The notes beneath the pieces were generated by a model. That model had not been told where the DNA came from, did no database searches, and saw only the letters and a program-made list of their open reading frames with translations. From Nitrosopumilus sp. (GTDB lineage: Archaea > Thermoproteota > Nitrososphaeria > Nitrososphaerales > Nitrosopumilaceae), in the NCBI GenBank assembly GCA_965205215.1, contig OZ242041.1, positions 192,001 through 256,000 on the forward strand: DNA of 64,000 nucleotides, read 5' to 3'. The translations under genes and the position numbers were made by a program. Below are positions 45,144-64,000 of this stretch, in pieces (within the stretch, counting starts at the first letter, position 1; the number at the start of each line of letters is the position of its first letter).

Positions 45144-45914
45144 TTATTCGTAATAGTCCGGCCTGTACCCGTACCTGGTCCCGTACAGCGGGGGCGGATC
45201 GAACGCCCTCCTGTACGCGTACGCCGTGATCAGCCCGATCGCAAACCCCCCGATGTGCGCAAGGTACGCGACGCCGCCGCCTGCCACGCCGAACCCCCCC
45301 ACCAAGTACGGGAGCAGGTTCTGCATGATGAGCCAGAACGGCATGAACCACTTTGCCTGTATGTGCAACATGAAATAGCCCACAAACGTGAGGATGCGGA
45401 CCCTCGGGAACAGCACCAAGTACGCCCCCATTATGCCCGATATGGCGCCCGACGCGCCGACTGCCGGAATCGGGCTTGTGGCGTCGCCGTATATGTGGAC
45501 CAGGCCCGCCACGACCCCCCACATCAGGTATATTCCCAGAAACTTGAACTTGCCGAACTTTTGCTCTATGTTGTCCCCAAAGACCCACAGAAACAGCATG
45601 TTGCCGCCAAAGTGCAAGAGTCCGCCGTGCATGAATATAGAGCTGAGCAGCGACGTATACTGCATGTCGGGACACGGTATCGACACGGCGCCCGCCCCGA
45701 AGTTTATCAGCGACTCGCTGGCGCCCGTGACGCAGTTGGGCACGGCCCCCCAGCTGTAGAACATCGCAAACGCGTTGCGGTTTGTAAAGTCAAAGAACTG
45801 GCCCGTATACAGCACCTCAAATACGAAGACGATGGAGTTTGCAATTATCAGTATGATCGTCATGACGGGACGGAATCCCGGTGGGTGCGGGTTCTCGTCC
45901 TTTAGTGGGATCAT
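45144..45914 (-). CDS. Rhomboid intramembrane serine protease
   Basis: MIPL.D.NP, FMHGG..H..GNMLFLWVFGDNIE, VGASGAISG, VAYLAHIGGF. Confidence 0.95.
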   Translation of the reverse strand: MIPLKDENPHPPGFRPVMTIILIIANSIVFVFEVLYTGQFFDFTNRNAFAMFYSWGAVPNCVTGASESLINFGAGAVSIPCPDMQYTSLLSSIFMHGGLLHFGGNMLFLWVFGDNIEQKFGKFKFLGIYLMWGVVAGLVHIYGDATSPIPAVGASGAISGIMGAYLVLFPRVRILTFVGYFMLHIQAKWFMPFWLIMQNLLPYLVGGFGVAGGGVAYLAHIGGFAIGLITAYAYRRAFDPPPLYGTRYGYRPDYYE

Positions 45915-46017: not shown

Positions 46018-48426
46018 TCAGGGCCGGGTCTTGGCACGGGAGCTCAGTCGGGCCCGTGCCAGCCGCGCGCACCCCACGGCCGCAAACGCTGGAATGCCCA
46101 CGTACATTCCAATGTTCAGGAGTATTACCGACATGCCGTACCCCAGCATCTCCGCTTCCGTGTCGATGCCCGCATGCTCCAACAGCGAGAGTGACGACAG
46201 CATTGGCGTCAGCAGAACCTTGGTTGCCTCCCTGATTGCCGGGTTCTCCCTCTGAATGTCTGCCACAGACGGGGAGAACGTATAGTATATGGAATTGAAG
46301 CCAGACATGAATGCGGTTCCGGATGAGGTTGCAAGTACGGTGCTGTCCCTCAGCTCCCTGAGCTGCTGGACTTGGGGCGCAAGCTCGGAACCAAATGCGG
46401 CAGTCGCGATAAGGCAGCCGCCGCCTTCGTCTGCGGGAATCTCGACGGCATCATCCATCATCGTGACGTGTTTCTGCCTCATCGTCTCGTGGTCGGCCCG
46501 CATCATGTCGTGGTCGTCACTCATTGCCTTGTGATCCTTCACCATAGTCTCGTGCAGGCCCATCATTTCATCGTGCATCTGCGCCATCATCATCATCATC
46601 CCGTCGTCACCCATGCCCGTACCGTGCCTGTCCATTACCTGCATGTGCTGCTGCATGACCGTCTCGTGGGCCTCGACCATCTCTCCATGCCCTGATATCT
46701 TCGCCTCATGGTCCTTGATCATCCTCATGTGCGCATCAATGTCCATGGGATCGCTGTCGTCGCTCATCATGGCCTCGTGCTCCTTCATCATGGCCTCGTG
46801 CTCCTTCATCATGGCCTCGTGCTCCTTCATCATGGTCTCCATCTCGTTGTTCATGGCGGCCATCTCGTCTTGTTCCGTGTCGCCGCCCATCATCATGCCG
46901 CCGTGGTCCATGCTGTCGCCGTCGCCGTCGCCGCCCATCATCATGCCGCCGTGGTCCATGCTGTCGCCGTCGCCGTCGCCGCCCATCATCATGCCGCCGT
47001 GGTCCATGCTAGACATGTCGTGCGGCTCGCTGATCACAAAGGAGATCCTAACAGACGAGGAGGTTCCCTCTATGTTTGCCACCTCGAGTGTTGCAATACC
47101 CGTCTCATCAAACGTGGCCGTAATGCGGTCACCCCCCTCGGGCGCCTCGCGTCCGGCCTCGGACAGCACGACATCGTCGCCTAGTGACAGTCTCATGTCG
47201 TACGTGGCCCCCGGAATATGGTCGTCAGAGCCCTCATGACGGATCACAAGTGACAGCGTCAGCTCGTTTCCGGGATGCAGCATGCCCGCAGGCTCAGCCG
47301 ACACGCGCACGTCATAGTTCCCGTCGGCGCCCCCAGTCGACCTCGTTATTACCGCGTCCCCCGCCTCAATTGACGCGTCGCCGCTTATCTGGTGCTGGCG
47401 CTCGGCGCCGGCCCTTATCTCAAACACCATCCTGTCAAGATACCCGGGTTCCAGATTTTGCATCATCTCAAGCAGCTTGCCAGAGGACAACAGGTAATGC
47501 ACCACCGTCTCATCACTGCCGGAGCGGTCCACCGTGCCGAAATAGTCCATTCCGTTTACTGCAAGCAGTATGTCATGGTTCTCAAAGAGATCAATTGATT
47601 TCGGGATGAAGAACTCGGCGTGGATGAACGATGCCGCCTCTATGTACTCCTCGGTCCAGACAAACGGCATCTCTACTGAGACACTCCTGGCCTGTTCGTC
47701 GTATGAAAATTTGTCAACCCTGTCAAAATAAGTGGCAAATGTGATATCCGACGGCATGCCGTCAATCTCGACTGTAAACGGAACATACTGGCCCATGCTG
47801 AACATCACCTCGAAGGTGGAATCCTCGCCAGCGGACACGGGCTGCGAGTCAATTGACTTGACTGTCGCATGTACGTAGACTATGCCTCCCTCCAGAAATA
47901 CAGGGGCCTTCAACGTGGCCGGGGAGTCGTCGGATGCCAACCAAGATCCCTCCTTGGCGCTCTCGCCGGATACCTCGACGGGTGCATCCGTGGAAGGTTG
48001 GATCAGGATACTCAGACTTTCACCAGGCGAGTACGCGTCAAGGGATGCAAGCGAGGCGTCCCTGTCACTGCCATCGACAAACGTCAGGCTGTACTCTACG
48101 CCGGACACTGAGATGGCAGGTTCCGCGTCCACATTCACCAAGGATATGGTCATTGCGACATGCTCCTCGTCACCGCTCAATATTGCAGGGTTGGTCGTGA
48201 TCTTGAGCATGTGATAGTCGCCGTTTATCAGCAAGAGTTCACTGTCAGCTGAACCGGAACTTCCCGCATAAGCCTCCTCAAACATGCCGTCATACGCAAA
48301 GAGTACGGATGCCGACACAAGCGTCGCCACAAGCATGAACGACAGTGCAGTATGTCCAGACCCATGCCGTTGCAACACAGTACCATATGGAACGGACGCA
48401 GTATAACTGTCAATCGCAGCGCTCAT
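46018..48426 (-). CDS. Secreted CFI-box-CTERM protein with Met/His-rich repeat region
   Basis: Signal-like hydrophobic segment, beta-rich domains, Met/His tracts, GGGCLIATAAFGSELAPQVQQLRELRD, C-terminal TM plus basic tail; start uncertain. Confidence 0.88.
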   Translation of the reverse strand: MSAAIDSYTASVPYGTVLQRHGSGHTALSFMLVATLVSASVLFAYDGMFEEAYAGSSGSADSELLLINGDYHMLKITTNPAILSGDEEHVAMTISLVNVDAEPAISVSGVEYSLTFVDGSDRDASLASLDAYSPGESLSILIQPSTDAPVEVSGESAKEGSWLASDDSPATLKAPVFLEGGIVYVHATVKSIDSQPVSAGEDSTFEVMFSMGQYVPFTVEIDGMPSDITFATYFDRVDKFSYDEQARSVSVEMPFVWTEEYIEAASFIHAEFFIPKSIDLFENHDILLAVNGMDYFGTVDRSGSDETVVHYLLSSGKLLEMMQNLEPGYLDRMVFEIRAGAERQHQISGDASIEAGDAVITRSTGGADGNYDVRVSAEPAGMLHPGNELTLSLVIRHEGSDDHIPGATYDMRLSLGDDVVLSEAGREAPEGGDRITATFDETGIATLEVANIEGTSSSVRISFVISEPHDMSSMDHGGMMMGGDGDGDSMDHGGMMMGGDGDGDSMDHGGMMMGGDTEQDEMAAMNNEMETMMKEHEAMMKEHEAMMKEHEAMMSDDSDPMDIDAHMRMIKDHEAKISGHGEMVEAHETVMQQHMQVMDRHGTGMGDDGMMMMMAQMHDEMMGLHETMVKDHKAMSDDHDMMRADHETMRQKHVTMMDDAVEIPADEGGGCLIATAAFGSELAPQVQQLRELRDSTVLATSSGTAFMSGFNSIYYTFSPSVADIQRENPAIREATKVLLTPMLSSLSLLEHAGIDTEAEMLGYGMSVILLNIGMYVGIPAFAAVGCARLARARLSSRAKTRP
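46765..46835. repeat. 21-bp tandem repeat x3 encoding (MMKEHEA)n
   Basis: Unit CATCATGGCCTCGTGCTCCTT. Confidence 0.9.
46879..47010. repeat. 48-bp tandem repeat x2.75 encoding SMDHGGMMMGGDGDGD
   Basis: Read directly from the sequence. Confidence 0.9.
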
Positions 48427-48442
48427 ACCAACCAAGCCTCCA

Positions 48443-50416
48443 TTATGACGGGATCTCCACGAATATCTCAGAACCGTCGTCGCCCGCAGAGGTGCCCGTG
48501 TCCAGCACCAGCGCCCGTGTAACGATATCCAGTGAGTCGGCAGTCGTATACGGATCTGGGAGTGTAAGATCCTCATATTCGATGTATATGGTGTCGCCGT
48601 CCGACACGCGCAGCCTGTCCTGACTGTCGGAGCGATCCGTAGTGGTCATGATGAACTCACCCTCCAGATAGTTGTAGTGGTGGGGGTGATCATATCCCTC
48701 GAGGTAGTCAGGCACGTTTCCCTCCTCAAACGAGTCGTGTCTGGGCACGACTTCCTTGATTACTGCCTCCGGAGCCACTTGGAATGAAAAGTTGACCTGC
48801 TGTGATGCATCATCAAAGATGTCCTTTATTACGATACGGACGGATCCTCGCTCGTCAAACCGGATTGGCTCGAGGCCCTGTCCGTCCGCAAATGAGCGGT
48901 CGGCACGGGTCTCGACAAGCTCGCCGTTGAGGTATACCTCCATCGTATATGTCAGGCCCATCTCGTGCACGTCGGTCATACCGTCGTGCGCCATGAGGTT
49001 GACTACATAGTCCTGGCCGACTCCGAGCAGCCCCCCAGGCTCCCACCAAAAGTAGACCTTCCACCTGCCGTCTTCCGTATATTTCGTAAGCGAGCTTGCG
49101 GCAGGCTCCGTAAGGTGTCTGTCACTGAATCCGTCTTGGATGGTGGCGTGCTCCATAAATGGAGTAAATTGTACACCCACATGAATTCCGGTAAGATCAG
49201 TATCAGAATATACACGGACATAATTGGTGTGGAATTCGGCGTGATGTATCCACAGATCCTTGTCGCGCAAGAAGAACGTGACCTTTTCATTGACATCATA
49301 TACCGGTTTGTGGAATTGAACCTCTCCAATCTCCCATTCGTATGTCGCAGATTTTTGTATGATCGTATCCTCGTTTGGTTCCCAGGATACGGTAATCCGT
49401 CCGTCTTGCGGTTCTGTTGCTATCAGAACGGCGCGGTCATGAGATGAGATCTCGGCGCCGCTGTTGTGCTGGGGCGCGGTCATGTCGGGCGCGGTCATGC
49501 CGCCGTGGCCTCCGCCGTGCTGGGGCGCGGTCATGTCGGGCGCGGTCATGCCGCCGTGGCCTCCGCCGTGCTGGGGCGCGGTCATGTCGGGCGCGGTCAT
49601 GCCGCCGTGGCCTCCGCCGTGCTGGGGCGCGGTCATGTCGGGCGCGGTCATGCCGCCGTGGCCTCCGCCGTGCTGGGGCGCGGTCATGTCGGGCGCGGTC
49701 ATGCCGCCGTGGCCTCCGCCGTGCTGGGGCGCGGTCATGTCGGGCGCGGTCATGCCGCCGTGGCCTCCGCCGTGCTGGGGCGCGGTCATGTCGGGCGCGG
49801 TCATGCCGCCGTGGCCTCCGCCGTGCTGGGGCGCGGTCATGTCGGGCGCGGTCATGCCGCCGTGGCCTCCGCCGTGCTGGGGCGCGGTCATGCCGCCGTG
49901 GCCGCCTGAATGTCCCCCGCCATGGGCGGGAGGCCCGTTTTCGGTGGAACCGGTCACGCCATGGGTGGATATACTAGTATGAAACGAATCGTGTACGAGA
50001 TAGTTAGGCGCTCCGGTCATCTTGACAACACCCATAAATATTCCAGTATCAAATCCGGTCTCCGAAAAGTCCACCTCCGTGACTCTCTGCGGGCCGGTAT
50101 ACACCTTGATTGGGTTCTCCGGCGTGCCGATAACGTCTATCTTGTCAGAGTCGTCGTTCCAGCCCGGCGCGTATATCAGGACGTTTATACGATCCGTCCA
50201 TCCTAGCCCCTCATACCTTTCGTTACAGTCCTGCAGGGTGAACGCCTCGTTTGTACAAAATTTCATTATAATTCCAGTAGTCTTTTTTACAATCGTAAAA
50301 CCTGTCTCAGCTGATGCAGACTGCAACAGCGTCGGGGCGATCGCAGCAGTGCCTATAATCAATATTGCCGCAACAGTAGCGCCGGCCAGAACTGTTTTGT
50401 CCGGCATACCTACCAT
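48443..50416 (-). CDS. Secreted S-layer-protein-related protein with His/Met tandem repeats
   Basis: Signal peptide; WTD.I.V.I.AP..N.DSD.ID.IG, ETG.DTGIF.G, W.IGEVQ, V.SD.D..GI, RLRVSDGDTI..EYED.TLPDPYTTAD.LDI resemble the remembered Nitrosopumilus S-layer protein C-terminal domains. Confidence 0.75.
   Translation of the reverse strand: MVGMPDKTVLAGATVAAILIIGTAAIAPTLLQSASAETGFTIVKKTTGIIMKFCTNEAFTLQDCNERYEGLGWTDRINVLIYAPGWNDDSDKIDVIGTPENPIKVYTGPQRVTEVDFSETGFDTGIFMGVVKMTGAPNYLVHDSFHTSISTHGVTGSTENGPPAHGGGHSGGHGGMTAPQHGGGHGGMTAPDMTAPQHGGGHGGMTAPDMTAPQHGGGHGGMTAPDMTAPQHGGGHGGMTAPDMTAPQHGGGHGGMTAPDMTAPQHGGGHGGMTAPDMTAPQHGGGHGGMTAPDMTAPQHGGGHGGMTAPDMTAPQHNSGAEISSHDRAVLIATEPQDGRITVSWEPNEDTIIQKSATYEWEIGEVQFHKPVYDVNEKVTFFLRDKDLWIHHAEFHTNYVRVYSDTDLTGIHVGVQFTPFMEHATIQDGFSDRHLTEPAASSLTKYTEDGRWKVYFWWEPGGLLGVGQDYVVNLMAHDGMTDVHEMGLTYTMEVYLNGELVETRADRSFADGQGLEPIRFDERGSVRIVIKDIFDDASQQVNFSFQVAPEAVIKEVVPRHDSFEEGNVPDYLEGYDHPHHYNYLEGEFIMTTTDRSDSQDRLRVSDGDTIYIEYEDLTLPDPYTTADSLDIVTRALVLDTGTSAGDDGSEIFVEIPS
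49467..49874. repeat. 51-bp perfect tandem repeat x8 encoding APQHGGGHGGMTAPDMT
   Basis: Eight identical units with no spacers, plus a partial unit extending to about 49925. Confidence 0.95.
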
Positions 50417-58869: not shown

Positions 58870-58995
58870 GATACGTGTTACACAGATAAAAAACGTTCCA
58901 ACGCGGGGCCCGACGGCGGGCGTAACCGCGCATAGGCAAAGGCGCACGCACGCGCCTCTTTGATCTTTAAATATAGTGTGAAATTATTTACAATA

Positions 58996-60744
58996 TTGCA
59001 CAACAGGCTCGCACTGCTAGCGGCCATGGCCGCCATTGTCGTAATTCCGGCGGCCGCCCAGTCGGTCTCGGGGCACGGACTCGGGGGCGACCAAGCGCCG
59101 CCCATCAGCTTTTCGGGGATGGAGGTGACCGTCCGCACGGACCTCACGCCGTCGGACATCACGATAGGTGACATAGACGACGTCAACATGAAGATCAGGT
59201 TCTTCGACACGCTGACGGACACCACGCTTGAAAAGGTCACATACAGGATAGAGATGTGGCGCAGCGGGGAGCTGCTGGCAAGAAACCTGTTTTACGATCC
59301 CGACGGCAGACTCGACGTGGAGATACGCCCCAATCCGGACTGCGACAGTGCGGAGCTGTGGAGATGCAGCGTGTACGGCGGATCGGAGGACATAAGCTCG
59401 CCTGGCGCCCTGTTCGTGTACGGGGAGCCGTGCACCGGCGACAACTACGACGTATGCGCAAGGCCCACCATAACAGGGCCCATATTCGAGAAGGGCGGGC
59501 TGTACCACGTACGCGTCGACATAGAGGGCGCGACCAGCCCCAGGGTGCAGCTTGCAGAGAGGCTGAGCTATGACACGTTTGTCAGCGTGGCCCAGGAGCA
59601 GAACTTTGCAATACAGACAGCCCATGCCGAGGAGATTCCCGTAATAATCAAGACGTACTACGATGATGTAAAGAACTTTGCATTCGAACCGTCGGACAAC
59701 TCCATCACGTTCGACATGGCCTTTGACTGGACGCCGGACTATGTCGACCTGGTGGAGGTGGTGCACGAGGAGGTCAGGATCCCCAAGGACTTTGTGCCGT
59801 ATGCGGAAGGCAAGCAGTTCAGGGGATACGTAAACGGGGTGGAGGTGGACCAGCGCGCCCTGCTAAACGATCCGTACTCGTACGAGGACACGAACGTGGT
59901 ACACTTTCTGATAACCAACAGCGAGCTGCAAAAGATCAGCGAGAACATGGAGGACGACAGGTTCGAGAGCAAGAACATGAACCTGAAGCTAGTTCCCGTC
60001 GAGGAGGCGGAGGTCAGCTCCGTGGAGTTCTATTTGGTGGACCTTGAAACCATGCAGGAGAGGGCTCCTACCACCGTAACCATAGAGTGGGAAGGACAGT
60101 ACGGCGCGGGCGACGAGATCCCGTTTGAGTTCACGTTCCTGGACCGGGACAACAAGCTGATCAAGGACGTCTGGTACGGGTACATAGTGAGCGACGAGTC
60201 AGGCAACGAGATAGCAAGGTTCTCCGGAAGCGACCCGCTCAATACGGGCATAGCATCGCCGGAAGGCATAGACGTGCAGGACATCAGGATACCGTCTGAG
60301 GGGCTGATCAGGGTGGACGTGATAGTATACGGAACCGGCCTCGACTACGACCCCACGTACTCGGGAATCGGGTCAGGACTCATAGAGATCGGGCCCGGGG
60401 CGCCCGCGGGCGGCACTCCCCCAGGCGACGTGAACGAGCCGGCACCAAGCACGGAGGCGGCGGAGATACCGTCGTGGATAAAGACCAACGCGGGCTGGTG
60501 GGCCGAGGGCCTGATAGACGACGCCACGTTTGTGACCGGCATACAGTACCTGATACAGAGCGGGGTGCTCGTGGTGCCGGCAGCCGGCAGCGGCGACCCT
60601 GGCCAGGACGGTGAGGCGGCGGCGGGGATACCGCCGTGGATAAAGACCAACGCGGGCTGGTGGGCCGAGGGCCTGATAGACGACGGATCTTTTGTGTCAG
60701 GCCTGCAGTACCTGATAAAAGAGGGAATAATACGCGTGAGTTGA
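58996..60744 (+). CDS. Secreted thaumarchaeal surface protein (predicted mature N-terminus HGLGG) with two WIKTNAGWW modules
   Basis: TTG start after TTTAAATA; signal peptide; TYYD, VHEE..IP, VHF domain. Confidence 0.85.
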
Positions 60745-61006: not shown

Positions 61007-62983
61007 ATGGCAAGCATGGCGGCCATAACTACGACAACGGCAGGACCGATACCCGCGACAAATGGATGGCTGCGATGGCGGCGTCCGGCCCGGCAGCAAC
61101 GGCCACAGCCGTCGTCACGCGGGTACCTTGCCGCAGTTCTTGTCCTGATGGCAGTATGCGCTGCGGCGATGGCCGCATCCGGCGTGCAGCCTGCCGCAGG
61201 CCACGGCACGTCGAGCGAGACGTTTCCCCCGGTAGAACTGAACGGGCAGCAGGTTGCCCTAGAGATATCGTCATCTGCCCCCCCACCTCCGGAGACGACG
61301 GGGCGGCCGCCGGCAGGAATCGCGCCGGGCGAGGACCTGCAGATAGGGATAGCCCTCGTCGACTTTGACTCGAAAGTCACGCTCCGTGACGTGACGTTCC
61401 ACATCAGGGCCGAGCTTGGGAACAAGTTCCTCTTTGAGCAAGAATTCAGGGCCGACAACGGGTTTCTAGTCTTTAATTTTGCATCAGACGACAGCGCGGG
61501 CGGCGAGATAACGGTCCACGACGGAGGGAAGGGAGACGATCAGTATGACATTGTCTCGTACCTGCTCGGAGTCGAGAGCAGGAACGTACGCGTGGCGGGG
61601 CCAAGCCTTGCAGACGGCGGACTCTACAAATTTGGCATTGCCATAACTACGGCAGGCGACTACTCAGAGCGCCTGGATGCACCGATAGAGTACGACTCTG
61701 GGATATCCATACCGATGATAACCACGTACGGCGTAAAGGATCCCAACTTTGGGGATCAGTACATCAGGGCCATTACATACTACGACAAGATAACCGACTT
61801 TGAGTACGACTCCGAGGCGAGGGAGATCAGGTACTCTATGCCGTTTGAGTGGAGCGACTCTAACATAGACCAGTCATACGTGGTGCACGAGGAGCTCTCG
61901 ATTCCGGACACGTACGGGGATCTCCTGCTGTCGGGATTCGAGCTCTACATAAACGGCGTAAGGCTGCCAGAGGAGACGATCCTGATTGACGACTTTTTCA
62001 CGGGGGAGAGAATAGTACACTTTATCGTACCCCAGGAGCAGCTCTACAGCATACGGGACGGCGGCGGCCGGGAGGACGGCATCATGAACTTTGTAATCAG
62101 GCCCGACACCAACCATACGCGCATAGCGTCAGTGACGGAGAACGGCCAGTTCCGGATATTCGCCTCGTGGGAACCGGAGGATCTGAGGTCCGGCCAGAAC
62201 GCTAGGATAATCTTCGAGGTAACAGACGTCTTTTTGAAGGGCGCGCCCATTGCAGCAGAGTACCATTTCTCTGTGACGACGAATGACGGCAGTACCATCT
62301 TTGAGCAGTCAGGTGTCAGCACGGACTCGAGGGACGATCCCACAAACGTGGCCGAGTTTGAGATACCCCAGGACGTCTCTGGAATAGCATATCTCAACTT
62401 TGAGAGGCTGCAGGACAACGAGCGCGCCAGAACATCCATGCCTATCGTAATAGACAGGGTGGCAGGCAGCGCCATCATAGACGACGGCACGATAGGCATA
62501 GCAGCAAGTGAGAACGGGGCGGGAGGGGCAGCCAACAATGGCGGCGGTAACGACGACAATGGCGGCGGCTGCCTCATTGCGACTGCCGCATACGGCTCGG
62601 AGCTTGCCCCGCAGGTGCAGCAGCTCAGGGAGCTGAGGGACAATACCATACTGAGAACCTCGTACGGCACGGCATTCATGTCAGGATTCAACTCCATATA
62701 CTACACGTTCTCCCCAACAGTGGCCGACCTCCAGAGGGAGCACCAAACGCTGCGCGACGCAACCAAGATCGCACTGACGCCCATGCTGGCATCGCTCACG
62801 CTGCTTGACGGCGTCAGCATAGGGACCGAGCACGACATGCTGGCATACGGCATCCTCATTATCGCGCTGAACGTGGCAGTCTACGTGGCATGCCCCATTG
62901 CAGCCATGACCATGGCGTACACGGGGCTAAAGAGGCGAACAGGCGGCAGAAAGACGGCAGCGTGGCGAACCATGATCAACTGA
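61007..62983 (+). CDS. Secreted CFI-box-CTERM protein (predicted mature N-terminus HGTSS)
   Basis: Signal peptide, TYYD/VHEE/VHF domain, GGGCLIATAAYGSELAPQVQQLRELRD, C-terminal TM plus basic tail. Confidence 0.88.
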   Translation: MASMAAITTTTAGPIPATNGWLRWRRPARQQRPQPSSRGYLAAVLVLMAVCAAAMAASGVQPAAGHGTSSETFPPVELNGQQVALEISSSAPPPPETTGRPPAGIAPGEDLQIGIALVDFDSKVTLRDVTFHIRAELGNKFLFEQEFRADNGFLVFNFASDDSAGGEITVHDGGKGDDQYDIVSYLLGVESRNVRVAGPSLADGGLYKFGIAITTAGDYSERLDAPIEYDSGISIPMITTYGVKDPNFGDQYIRAITYYDKITDFEYDSEAREIRYSMPFEWSDSNIDQSYVVHEELSIPDTYGDLLLSGFELYINGVRLPEETILIDDFFTGERIVHFIVPQEQLYSIRDGGGREDGIMNFVIRPDTNHTRIASVTENGQFRIFASWEPEDLRSGQNARIIFEVTDVFLKGAPIAAEYHFSVTTNDGSTIFEQSGVSTDSRDDPTNVAEFEIPQDVSGIAYLNFERLQDNERARTSMPIVIDRVAGSAIIDDGTIGIAASENGAGGAANNGGGNDDNGGGCLIATAAYGSELAPQVQQLRELRDNTILRTSYGTAFMSGFNSIYYTFSPTVADLQREHQTLRDATKIALTPMLASLTLLDGVSIGTEHDMLAYGILIIALNVAVYVACPIAAMTMAYTGLKRRTGGRKTAAWRTMIN

Positions 62984-63040
62984 CCGCATATGTGAACAAT
63001 CAGATAAAAATTTTTAAAACCCAGCGAGTCAAACCATGCA

Positions 63041-64000
63041 ATGAAGACTAGAACAGTCAGTTCATTCTTTTTACTGTCTGTACTCGTAGCGGGAATGATT
63101 GCAACTACCCCCTCAGCGTCTGCAGATCATCCGAACGTAGTGCTTGAGCCCCTTCCGGGGTCGGCCACTGCAGGATGTCAGGATACCGACGAGGGCTGTT
63201 ACAACATACCCATACTGACAGTAGCTCCGGGAACTACCATAACGTTCTCAAACACAGACAACGCAGCACACACGCTGACATCAGGCTCTCCAGCAGAGGG
63301 CATGACCGGCGTGTTTGACAGCGGTTTGGTAATGGTCGGGGCCACGTACGAGTTCACGATAGATGAAGAAGGAGAATACAATCATTACTGCATTGTCCAC
63401 CCGTGGATGACGGGCCAGATCATAGTAGAGGCGGCACACGGTGAGGAAGCAACGATGATGGAAGAGGACGACTCCATGATGATGGAAGAGGACGACTCCA
63501 TGATGATGGAAGAGGACGACTCCATGATGATGGAAGAGGACGACTCCATGATGATGGAAGAGGACGACTCCATGATGATGGAAGAGGACGACTCCATGAT
63601 GATGGAAGAGGACGACTCCATGATGATGGAAGAGGACGACTCCATGATGATGGAAGAGGACGACTCCATGATGATGGAAGAGGACGACTCCATGATGATG
63701 GAAGAGGACGACTCCATGATGGACGAGACGTCAGCGGCAGACGAGGAGACTGGTGGTTGCCTTATTGCAACTGCGGCATTTGGCTCCGAGCTTGCGCCAC
63801 AAGTTCAGCAACTTAGAGAGCTGAGAGACAACACGGTACTTGCCACAGAGTCCGGTACGGCATTTATGTCCGGATTCAACAGCATATACTACACGTTCTC
63901 CCCAGCGGTGGCAGATCTCGAAAGAGAGAACCCGGCGTTCAGGGAGGCAGTCAAGGTGGCACTGACCCCAATGCTCTCCACACTCTCACTGCTAAACCAT
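63041..64000 (+). CDS. Plastocyanin-like blue copper protein with Met-rich stalk and CFI-box-CTERM (runs off window end)
   Basis: Own translation: signal peptide, N.D.AAHT.TSG, FDSG, type-1 Cu ligands YCIVHPWM, (MMMEEDDS)n, GGCLIATAAFGSELAPQVQQLRELRD. Not in the ORF track. Confidence 0.92.
   Translation, partial: MKTRTVSSFFLLSVLVAGMIATTPSASADHPNVVLEPLPGSATAGCQDTDEGCYNIPILTVAPGTTITFSNTDNAAHTLTSGSPAEGMTGVFDSGLVMVGATYEFTIDEEGEYNHYCIVHPWMTGQIIVEAAHGEEATMMEEDDSMMMEEDDSMMMEEDDSMMMEEDDSMMMEEDDSMMMEEDDSMMMEEDDSMMMEEDDSMMMEEDDSMMMEEDDSMMMEEDDSMMDETSAADEETGGCLIATAAFGSELAPQVQQLRELRDNTVLATESGTAFMSGFNSIYYTFSPAVADLERENPAFREAVKVALTPMLSTLSLLNH
63455..63721. repeat. 24-bp perfect tandem repeat x11 encoding MMMEEDDS
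   Basis: Unit ATGATGGAAGAGGACGACTCCATG read directly. Confidence 0.95.

Follow-up and report, generated by a model that had tools for sequence, protein, structure and literature searches.

A histidine- and methionine-patterned module in the place of a cupredoxin: a candidate extracytoplasmic copper buffer in a Nitrosopumilus surface protein

What does a regular ladder of histidine and methionine residues do on the surface of an ammonia-oxidizing archaeon (AOA)? The question is raised by one gene in a 64,000-nucleotide stretch of the Nitrosopumilus sp. contig OZ242041.1 (positions 192,001 to 256,000 of the forward strand; the window). The gene encodes a surface protein in which a large ectodomain and a C-terminal anchor region are separated by a 152-residue module with His at every seventh position, usually followed by Met three or four residues later. 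The genome is a single contig of 2,098,239 bases with a guanine-plus-cytosine (GC) content of 60%, and the ladder is unique within it. A reading made from the sequence alone had proposed a new membrane-tethered, Cys-free helical bundle that stores copper. We favour, with a probability of roughly 0.55, the view that the module is an extracytoplasmic, membrane-anchored copper buffer or relay. This view draws on the His/Met register, the precedents set by the copper binder CopM and the silver binder SilE, the reliance of AOA on copper, and a cupredoxin for which the module is exchanged at one syntenic locus.

Residue numbers are those of the 852-residue open reading frame (ORF) at 46018-48576 on the minus strand, in which window positions 46450-47022 correspond to residues 519-709. 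The strings quoted in the sequence-only reading are all present, on the minus strand, which had not been stated: SMDHGGMMMGG(DGDGD) x3, (MMKEHEA) x3, and two six-His ladders, H-MRMIKD-H-EAKISG-H-GEMVEA-H-ETVMQQ-H-MQVMDR-H and H-DEMMGL-H-ETMVKD-H-KAMSDD-H-DMMRAD-H-ETMRQK-H. The His residues fall at 586, 593 and 600 in the first ladder, at 616-651 in the second and at 668-703 in the third (six His in each of the latter two). Within residues 566-712, 12 of the 14 gaps between consecutive His are exactly seven, a number reached by none of 100,000 composition-preserving shuffles (maximum 7); the 11 HxxM motifs of this segment were likewise reached by none of 100,000. Over residues 516-717, which hold 19 His, 14 HxxM and 6 MxxH motifs, Met stands at His+3 for 14, at His+4 for 11 and at His-4 for 11, and Asp or Glu occupies His-1 in 10/19 and His+1 in 10/19.

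When His is set as heptad position a, all 15 His of the module occupy a, and helices 1 and 3 begin with Met at a. Across the three ladder segments 26 of the 33 Met counted are at a, d or e, with Met at d in 5/5, 2/6 and 7/7 heptads of ladders 1, 2 and 3, respectively. Most heptads have Met, Val or Ile at position e, and some have Arg, Ser, Asn or Ala there; charged or small residues prevail at b, c, f and g, for the most part Glu, Asp, Lys, Gln, Ala or Thr. The composition of the 152 residues is similarly skewed. They include 15 His and 34 Met (22%), together with 20 Asp and 19 Glu, whereas Leu (1), Ile (4) and Val (6) are scarce and Cys, Phe, Trp and Tyr are absent. Outside the module region, Met makes up 3.3% of the protein and His 2.2%. 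That the module is free of Cys, as had been claimed, holds for the whole of residues 516-717. Because there are almost no other apolar residues, a folded module would have little besides His and Met with which to build a core, and from the heptad register together with this composition we infer that the His and Met side chains face inward.

A segment this rich in Met would also suit a sacrificial methionine shield against oxidants, or a heme-binding bundle with His/Met ligation as in b562-type cytochromes; His and Met axially ligate heme in helical bundles, and methionine residues scavenge oxidants. Neither function, however, needs a strict seven-residue His register with Met at +3/+4. The module has no CxxCH motif and no Cys, no genes for heme handling or methionine sulfoxide reductase were seen among the neighbours scanned, and the copper context of the locus, described below, points elsewhere. 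Both functions therefore seem highly improbable.

Part of the regularity is explained at the DNA level. Tandem Repeats Finder shows that the (MMKEHEA) run in ladder 1 is a 21-bp tandem repeat of recent origin, with 3.6 copies and 98% matches, and the SMDHGGMMMGGDGDGD unit of the linker preceding the helices is a perfect 48-bp tandem repeat (2.8 copies, at 46879-47010) whose copy number differs between orthologues. In ladders 2 and 3, Tandem Repeats Finder gave no heptad-length (21- or 42-bp) repeat; all that it reported in them was a run of CAT, 16 bp long (46585-46600), which corresponds to the Met run opening helix 3. This absence fits the earlier observation that ladders 2 and 3 have diverged in sequence while remaining in register. 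Part of the pattern, in helix 1 and the linker, thus comes from recent slippage and part does not, in keeping with the sequence-only reading, which had invoked selection for the last two ladders.

Comparison of orthologues also indicates selection. A full-length homologue search returned 31 proteins, among which P0003-P0020 share the ectodomain, the His/Met helical module and the CFI-box. In 10 diverged orthologues, with modules 25-41% identical, identity is 72% at His columns and 49% at Met columns, compared with 15% at the others, which bears out the selection on His and Met that had been supposed. At positions that have lost His, Met, Tyr or Phe is found, as would suit a place in the core. 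Conservation is high at H51, H58 and H72 of helix 2 and at H124, H131 and H138 of helix 3 (module numbering), each kept in 9-10 of the 10. The whole three-helix unit is present twice in P0003, P0007, P0008 and P0009, and its duplication in four orthologues argues for an independent domain. All four indels listed among population contigs are multiples of 3, and the ratio of nonsynonymous to synonymous substitution (dN/dS) of the module, 0.31-0.41, likewise speaks for selection.

The modules are of two types, A in the window protein, P0004-P0006 and P0014, and B in P0007-P0013 and P0015. Type B modules also keep His at every seventh residue with Met at +3/+4, and the His-a/Met-d register is kept in P0019, from a relative with 38% GC. 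At locus L004 the ectodomain is 91% identical to that of the window protein and the module is barely alignable (nonsynonymous divergence, dN, ~0.63), suggesting either module exchange or very fast divergence between the two types. Such turnover might be expected of a purely structural stalk or spacer between the ectodomain and the membrane anchor, with a His/Met composition that is simply a by-product of repeat expansion and drift. The slippage-type repeats of helix 1 and the linker, the rarity of the module, the swapping or strong divergence among close relatives exemplified by L004, and the simple Gly/Ser or Pro/Thr linkers that other CFI-box proteins of this genome carry at the equivalent position are all compatible with a stalk. 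However, drift leaves the excess identity at His and Met columns unexplained, as well as the retention of the register in both module types and in P0019, and a spacer would be more stable with a Leu/Ile core. A stalk is thus considered unlikely.

The sequence-only reading had described three helical segments and had called for an AlphaFold model. In the AlphaFold2 prediction, made from an alignment of the module and 14 orthologues, three helices are predicted confidently at module residues 2-40, 48-88 and 93-145, connected by DDSDPMD and TGMG turns (mean predicted local distance difference test score, pLDDT, 83.6; predicted template modelling score, pTM, 0.74). A Foldseek search of the Protein Data Bank (PDB) with this model gave no match at E <= 0.001, the best rows being a spectrin repeat and a syntaxin-Habc-derived scaffold (template modelling scores, TM, 0.55/0.64). 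The VIA structure search, which is independent of Foldseek, gave Z scores of 10-12.4, a range that its tool calls common and unspecific for helical bundles, with root-mean-square deviations of 2.2-3.7 over 115-152 residues; its matches are single-chain three-helix bundles, Habc domains, spectrin repeats and designed bundles. The structural matches are thus solely three-helix bundles. The secondary structure of the model, its pTM and these matches indicate three antiparallel helices with an a/d heptad core, and the module is best placed in the antiparallel up-down-up three-helix bundle class as a predicted member with no specific relative; membership of this class implies no homology.

Among the structural matches is 8gl3 (Z 10.5), a designed monomeric helical bundle for pH-controlled membrane lysis. 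It recalls a different function for His at core a positions, in which a buried ladder would become protonated below about pH 6 and the bundle would unfold or open, sensing acidification from ammonia oxidation. Ammonia oxidation does release protons outside the membrane. The match to 8gl3 nevertheless lies within the generic helical-bundle range, and a pH switch leaves the enrichment and conservation of Met, the Met/His linker and the exchange with a cupredoxin unexplained, so this function is given very little weight.

The exchange itself is apparent from the genomic context. A scan of the genome collection found the ectodomain at 31 loci, all in Nitrosopumilaceae or Thaumarchaeota. Five of these have the ladder form (L001-L005), 22 were flagged as cupredoxin-like by a crude motif test, two yielded no ORF in this test, and two yielded short unflagged ORFs. 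The surrounding gene order is conserved: MoxR, two hypothetical genes, the orthologue of the gene upstream of the ladder gene, the ectodomain gene, a rhomboid, a tautomerase, a CN hydrolase and a thiolase. In 10 low-GC loci (L006, L008-L011, L013-L015, L017 and L018) the form lying between the upstream-gene orthologue and the rhomboid is the one flagged as cupredoxin-like, and in L001 and L003, which show the same full synteny, it is the ladder form. All four cupredoxin-like ORFs scanned (L006, L007, L010 and L018) match PF00127 above cut-off, starting at about residue 460, which is where the His/Met segment starts in the window protein when counted from M51. In addition, 9 of the 12 most distant homologues (P0022-P0033) carry a precomputed PF00127 assignment, and direct scans placed P0024 and P0033 above cut-off. 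The window protein has no match to PF00127, whose type-1 site is formed by His...Cys...His...Met, and is not a member of the cupredoxins. The same genome does have a cupredoxin paralogue elsewhere, with an ectodomain 42.5% identical and a PF00127 score of 37.1 bits. At one conserved locus, then, the His/Met bundle replaces a plastocyanin-type cupredoxin. The cupredoxin-bearing positional orthologues and the paralogue resemble the window protein in their ectodomain (39-44% identity), neighbourhood and the starting point of the C-terminal module. They differ in that they have a single type-1 copper redox domain together with PDWIKxNAxWW-type repeats and no CFI-box, whereas the window protein has the His/Met bundle and a CFI-box-CTERM domain instead.

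Another explanation concerns the identity of the metal. The module could be a general His-driven metal sponge or reservoir on the cell surface, taking up Zn(II), Ni(II), Co(II) or Fe(II) and not specific for copper. The 15 His with their acidic flanks would suit such ions, a ZnuA/ABC-3/ABC transporter cluster that encodes two long ZnuA-like proteins is located at a distance of ~22-27 kb, and P0038, a protein described below, has the same three His ladders with Leu or Ile in the place of Met at d. However, Met makes up 22% of the module and ranks second among its residue classes in conservation. Sites with thioether ligands are typically those of Cu(I) and Ag(I) and not those of Zn or Ni. Moreover, the domain replaced at this locus is a blue-copper domain, as is that of a neighbouring CFI-box protein. 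A sponge of this general kind therefore appears improbable.

The idea of a His/Met-lined helical copper binder is not without precedent. CopM of Synechocystis is described as a periplasmic or membrane-anchored helical bundle with a Cu(I) KD of ~3e-16 and a proposed role as a 'metal sponge' (PMC4335983, bioRxiv 10.1101/013581). In its models, copper sites arise where the side chains of His and Met come together within the bundle, and the preprint text treats it as a domain of unknown function (bioRxiv 10.1101/013581). The window module would share with CopM an extracytoplasmic location, anchored or periplasmic, and a helical bundle without a Cys-lined core. CopM is, however, a four-helix bundle where the window module is predicted to have three helices; a strict heptad ladder, present in the window module, is not among the features reported for CopM in these texts; and the window module, unlike CopM, is archaeal and fused to a large ectodomain and a CFI-box anchor. 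PF03713, which we take to be the accession of the CopM/DUF305 family, is not listed for the whole protein (E <= 0.1) or for the module (E <= 10). The CopM chain is absent from a PDB sequence search with the module at E <= 10 and is not among the structural rows shown for it, which by itself does not exclude similarity.

SilE, like PcoE a periplasmic 'molecular sponge', provides the second precedent. It is His/Met-rich and forms helices in a motif-driven manner on metal binding, according to PMC5008109, PMC11904771 and PMC12931370; its HxxM and MxxH motifs bind Ag(I) (PMC11904771). The window module resembles SilE and PcoE, which bind Ag(I)/Cu(I), in being His/Met-rich with both of these motifs. 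SilE is, in contrast, small, free, intrinsically disordered and encoded in an efflux operon, whereas the window module is predicted to be ordered (pLDDT 83.6), keeps an exact heptad register, lies within an anchored 802-residue protein and has no adjacent efflux pump. The helices of an AlphaFold2 model cannot separate an apo from a metal-bound state. No SilE/PcoE family match was found at E <= 0.1 with Pfam and NCBIfam, which presumably cover these families and gave the CFI-box alone, and the gene does not lie in a sil/pco operon.

Other comparisons concern architecture. The copper storage proteins Csp1 and Csp3 are described as helical bundles with cores lined by Cys ligands for many Cu(I) ions. 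The likeness is that of a helical bundle with a core lined by putative metal ligands. The Csp bundles use Cys and four helices, while the window module has no Cys and three predicted helices, and it does not qualify as a Csp protein; PF03860 (listed as DUF326, presumably the Csp family) is absent from the protein and from the whole genome, with a control match in Bacillus subtilis. Spectrin repeats and syntaxin-Habc domains show the same up-down-up three-helix topology with a/d heptads, but the cores of these natural bundles consist of Leu, Ile or Phe, and metals play no part in their function. Designed His3 three-helix metallopeptides also combine a three-helix topology with a/d heptads. Mixed His/Met coordination of Cu(I) is found in CusF, CopC/PcoC and Ctr1. 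Since CopM and SilE/PcoE came earlier, the functional idea is not categorically new, and the novelty attributed to it by the sequence-only reading was overstated: a Cys-free His/Met helical copper binder is precedented by CopM. What is new is the strictly heptad-regular three-helix form, as predicted, with a core almost entirely of ligand residues, the archaeal, CFI-box-anchored setting, and the exchange with a cupredoxin. Judged by these sequence comparisons, the module appears to belong to no described family and to be non-homologous to CopM. A full-text search of the literature did not find a description of the module and likewise returned nothing on the CFI-box.

Searches for relatives beyond the orthologues returned few candidates. 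A PDB sequence search with the module gave nothing significant, the best matches being spectrin (E 0.66) and a designed helical protein (E 1.3). A phmmer search of 1.84 billion representatives gave 13 matches at E <= 0.001, mostly other heptad-repeat proteins with Leu or Ile for Met, the exceptions being P0045, a perfect (SHELMMR)n repeat, and P0038. This search seems insensitive for a composition such as that of the module, since the orthologues of the window protein were not returned. A word-based search of 5.8 billion proteins, which needs shared 5-residue words and would miss distant analogues, returned orthologues only (the fragment P0047 at near-length, and five orthologues among longer proteins). 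In the ESM Atlas the best score was 0.77, for a Bacteroidota cluster, under the level treated as meaningful. P0038 is itself a 171-residue protein with a lipoprotein-like signal, three helices and His at every seventh residue, in which Leu, Ile or Phe stands at +3/+4 where the module has Met. No Pfam or NCBIfam family matches P0038, which may belong to a broader class of bacterial His-ladder three-helix bundles that is as yet undescribed; the ESM Atlas lead may also be related to it.

The position of the module in the protein is consistent with an extracytoplasmic location. The real start of the gene is probably M51 at 48426, giving an 802-residue product, because the upstream gene stops at 48443 and the N-termini of orthologues match. 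Just after the N-terminal hydrophobic segment stands AYAGSSGSA, an instance of the motif AYAG(S/G)SGSA conserved in the orthologue alignment, where the signal peptide is presumably cleaved. The ectodomain model (AlphaFold2, alignment A2) consists nearly entirely of strands (pLDDT 84.1, pTM 0.60). Its top Foldseek matches are adhesin, pilin and immunoglobulin/fibronectin type III-like multi-domain chains (E 4e-4, TM ~0.2), which, given the low global TM, mark it as a predicted tandem beta-sandwich of generic type. A Pfam scan of the whole protein gave nothing significant. The CFI-box-CTERM domain, a member of NF041770 at 69.7 bits against a cut-off of 40 (E 1.3e-19), is followed by a hydrophobic helix that is a probable membrane anchor; together these uphold the membrane tether postulated earlier. 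The orthologue P0019 matches CFI-box-CTERM at 71 bits, and the genome holds seven such domains. The features of the gene and of its surroundings are collected in Table 1.

Table 1. Features of the ladder gene and its surroundings (window positions unless prefixed G000:C1)
Feature	Coordinates	Strand	Remarks
Whole gene	46018..48426	-	802 residues from M51 of ORF 46018-48576; surface protein with His/Met module; ORF list and translation
N-terminal hydrophobic segment, signal peptide or transmembrane	48289..48345	-	residues 76-94; Kyte-Doolittle 19-residue peak 2.04
Ectodomain, ~420 residues, predicted all-beta, tandem beta-sandwich	47023..48279	-	residues ~100-518; AlphaFold2 and Foldseek
Flexible Met/His/Gly/Asp linker, (SMDHGGMMMGGDGDGD) x ~3	46882..47022	-	translation; tandem repeat
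Helix 1 (predicted)	46762..46878	-	residues 567-605; contains (MMKEHEA) x3; a positions Met or His, d and e positions Met
Helix 2 (predicted)	46618..46740	-	residues 613-653; six His at position a
Helix 3 (predicted)	46447..46605	-	residues 658-710; six His at a, Met at 7/7 d positions
CFI-box-CTERM domain, starting GGGCLIATAAFGS	46201..46416	-	residues 721-792; NCBIfam NF041770
C-terminal hydrophobic helix, then basic tail	46072..46128	-	residues 817-835; Kyte-Doolittle 19-residue peak 1.91 at residue 817
Rhomboid-family protease	45144-45914	-	directly downstream of ladder gene
Upstream co-directional gene	48443..50416	-	16 bases away; (QHGGGHGGMTAPDMTAP) x8 in loop of conserved surface protein
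CFI-box-CTERM protein	63008-64000, continuing to G000:C1:256156	+	signal peptide, plastocyanin-like domain, (MEEDDSMM) x11, anchor
CopC-CopD-Vgb-lyase/SGL-type beta-propeller fusion, 1032 residues	G000:C1:257212-260310		beyond window end, ~17 kb from ladder gene
Metal ABC uptake cluster	G000:C1:260435-265200	opposite to CopC-CopD fusion	two ZnuA-like proteins (504 and 518 residues), ABC-3 permease, ATPase

The module may thus work as follows. On each helix, His at i and i+7 and Met at i+3/i+4 would line up in one stripe. Where the three stripes face each other, layers of mixed His and Met would follow one upon another and provide a row of soft nitrogen/sulfur sites for Cu(I); His with the flanking carboxylates might also bind Cu(II). 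With the Met/His linker catching ions, the module would act as a membrane-proximal copper buffer or relay between the membrane and the S-layer, the space in which the copper enzymes of ammonia oxidation receive their metal. Alternatively, it could act as a protective copper sponge. AOA enzymes rely heavily on copper, and the route of copper uptake is described as unresolved in PMC7785015. Metal binding, the identity of the metal and the physiological role we infer from the register, the precedents and the locus.

Several observations weigh against a copper buffer or relay. The inward orientation of the ligands is deduced from the register, and the model, which describes the apo state, was predicted from no more than 15 aligned sequences. 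Part of the pattern arose by slippage, given the young tandem repeats of helix 1 and the linker. Not every ladder position is kept: of the 10 diverged orthologues, none conserves module position 103, 4 conserve position 117 while 5 have Phe there, and 6 have lost positions 79 and 86 by deletion. Judged by dN/dS, the module is under looser constraint than the ectodomain: comparisons with L001 and L003, which rest on few substitutions, give values of 0.31-0.41 and 0.15-0.17, respectively. No match was found between the module and any characterised metal-binding family, Pfam giving only generic helical families at E 0.03 or worse. The nearest copper/zinc uptake genes are ~17-25 kb away and not in one operon with the gene, and an exchange with a redox cupredoxin is no proof that the replacement binds copper. 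Finally, a search of 301 genomes of the family, with a single-protein query that may miss type B modules, detected the module in 2, one of which is the genome of the window; on this count the module does not belong to core AOA physiology.

A bolder form of the copper reading may be envisaged. The ligand-only core would hold a linear column of some 8-12 Cu(I) ions outside the cell and fold around the metal, as a 'copper zipper' and the first Cys-free extracytoplasmic copper store in archaea. As the successor of a cupredoxin, the module might even serve as a copper-based conduit passing copper or electrons between the ectodomain and the membrane. This proposal, including the number of ions, is speculative and rather doubtful as a whole.

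The genes around the ladder gene include further proteins of related character. The upstream gene and the ladder gene are probably co-transcribed. The repeat of the upstream gene is a perfect 51-bp tandem (8.4 copies) encoding (QHGGGHGGMTAPDMTAP)n. Four of its orthologues examined carry different His/Met-rich inserts in the same loop, L005 having (ADNTADAHSGHMQ) x6, L023 (QMHGHMPSTD) x4, and both L007 and L010 stretches rich in Met; a fifth orthologue is a near-copy of the upstream gene in the window. The C-terminal part of the upstream gene product is distantly similar to the ectodomain end of the ladder protein. No efflux pump was found among the neighbours of the ladder gene, which are the rhomboid protease, the tautomerase, the CN hydrolase and surface proteins. 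The rhomboid was considered as a processing protease specific for the CFI-box and rejected, the gene being equally conserved beside cupredoxin forms that have no CFI-box. Near the window end, the plastocyanin-like domain of the ORF beginning at 63008 scored 25.5 and 29.5 bits with PF00127 in two scans, above cut-off; here the Met-rich acidic linker, (MEEDDSMM) x11, adjoins a bona fide blue-copper domain. Two further plus-strand ORFs (window 58960-60744 and 61007-62983) encode secreted proteins with distant copies of the ectodomain (24-27% identity), of which one ends in repeats and the other in a CFI-box-CTERM domain. The region forms an island of related surface proteins.

Part of the gene was present in 20 of the 24 sequencing runs listed, among which are runs labelled as sponge metagenomes and one RNA run. 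In one sponge metatranscriptome, contigs 90-95% alike over 29 of 30 bins derive from a relative; their presence is no demonstration of transcription and offers at most a weak hint that the relative's gene is expressed. Since DNA of the organism occurs in sponge metagenomes, the module may reflect copper conditions inside an animal host. More generally, the module provides a concrete, testable candidate for extracytoplasmic copper capture, buffering or delivery in AOA, in the form of a compact 150-residue domain that could be expressed alone. If the copper reading is true, it would give bioinorganic chemistry a natural equivalent of the helical bundles designed to bind metals, one that has next to no hydrophobic core of the usual kind. 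In evolutionary terms, the locus presents a clean module swap between a blue-copper domain and a His/Met bundle at a conserved position, with two very different cassettes among close relatives.

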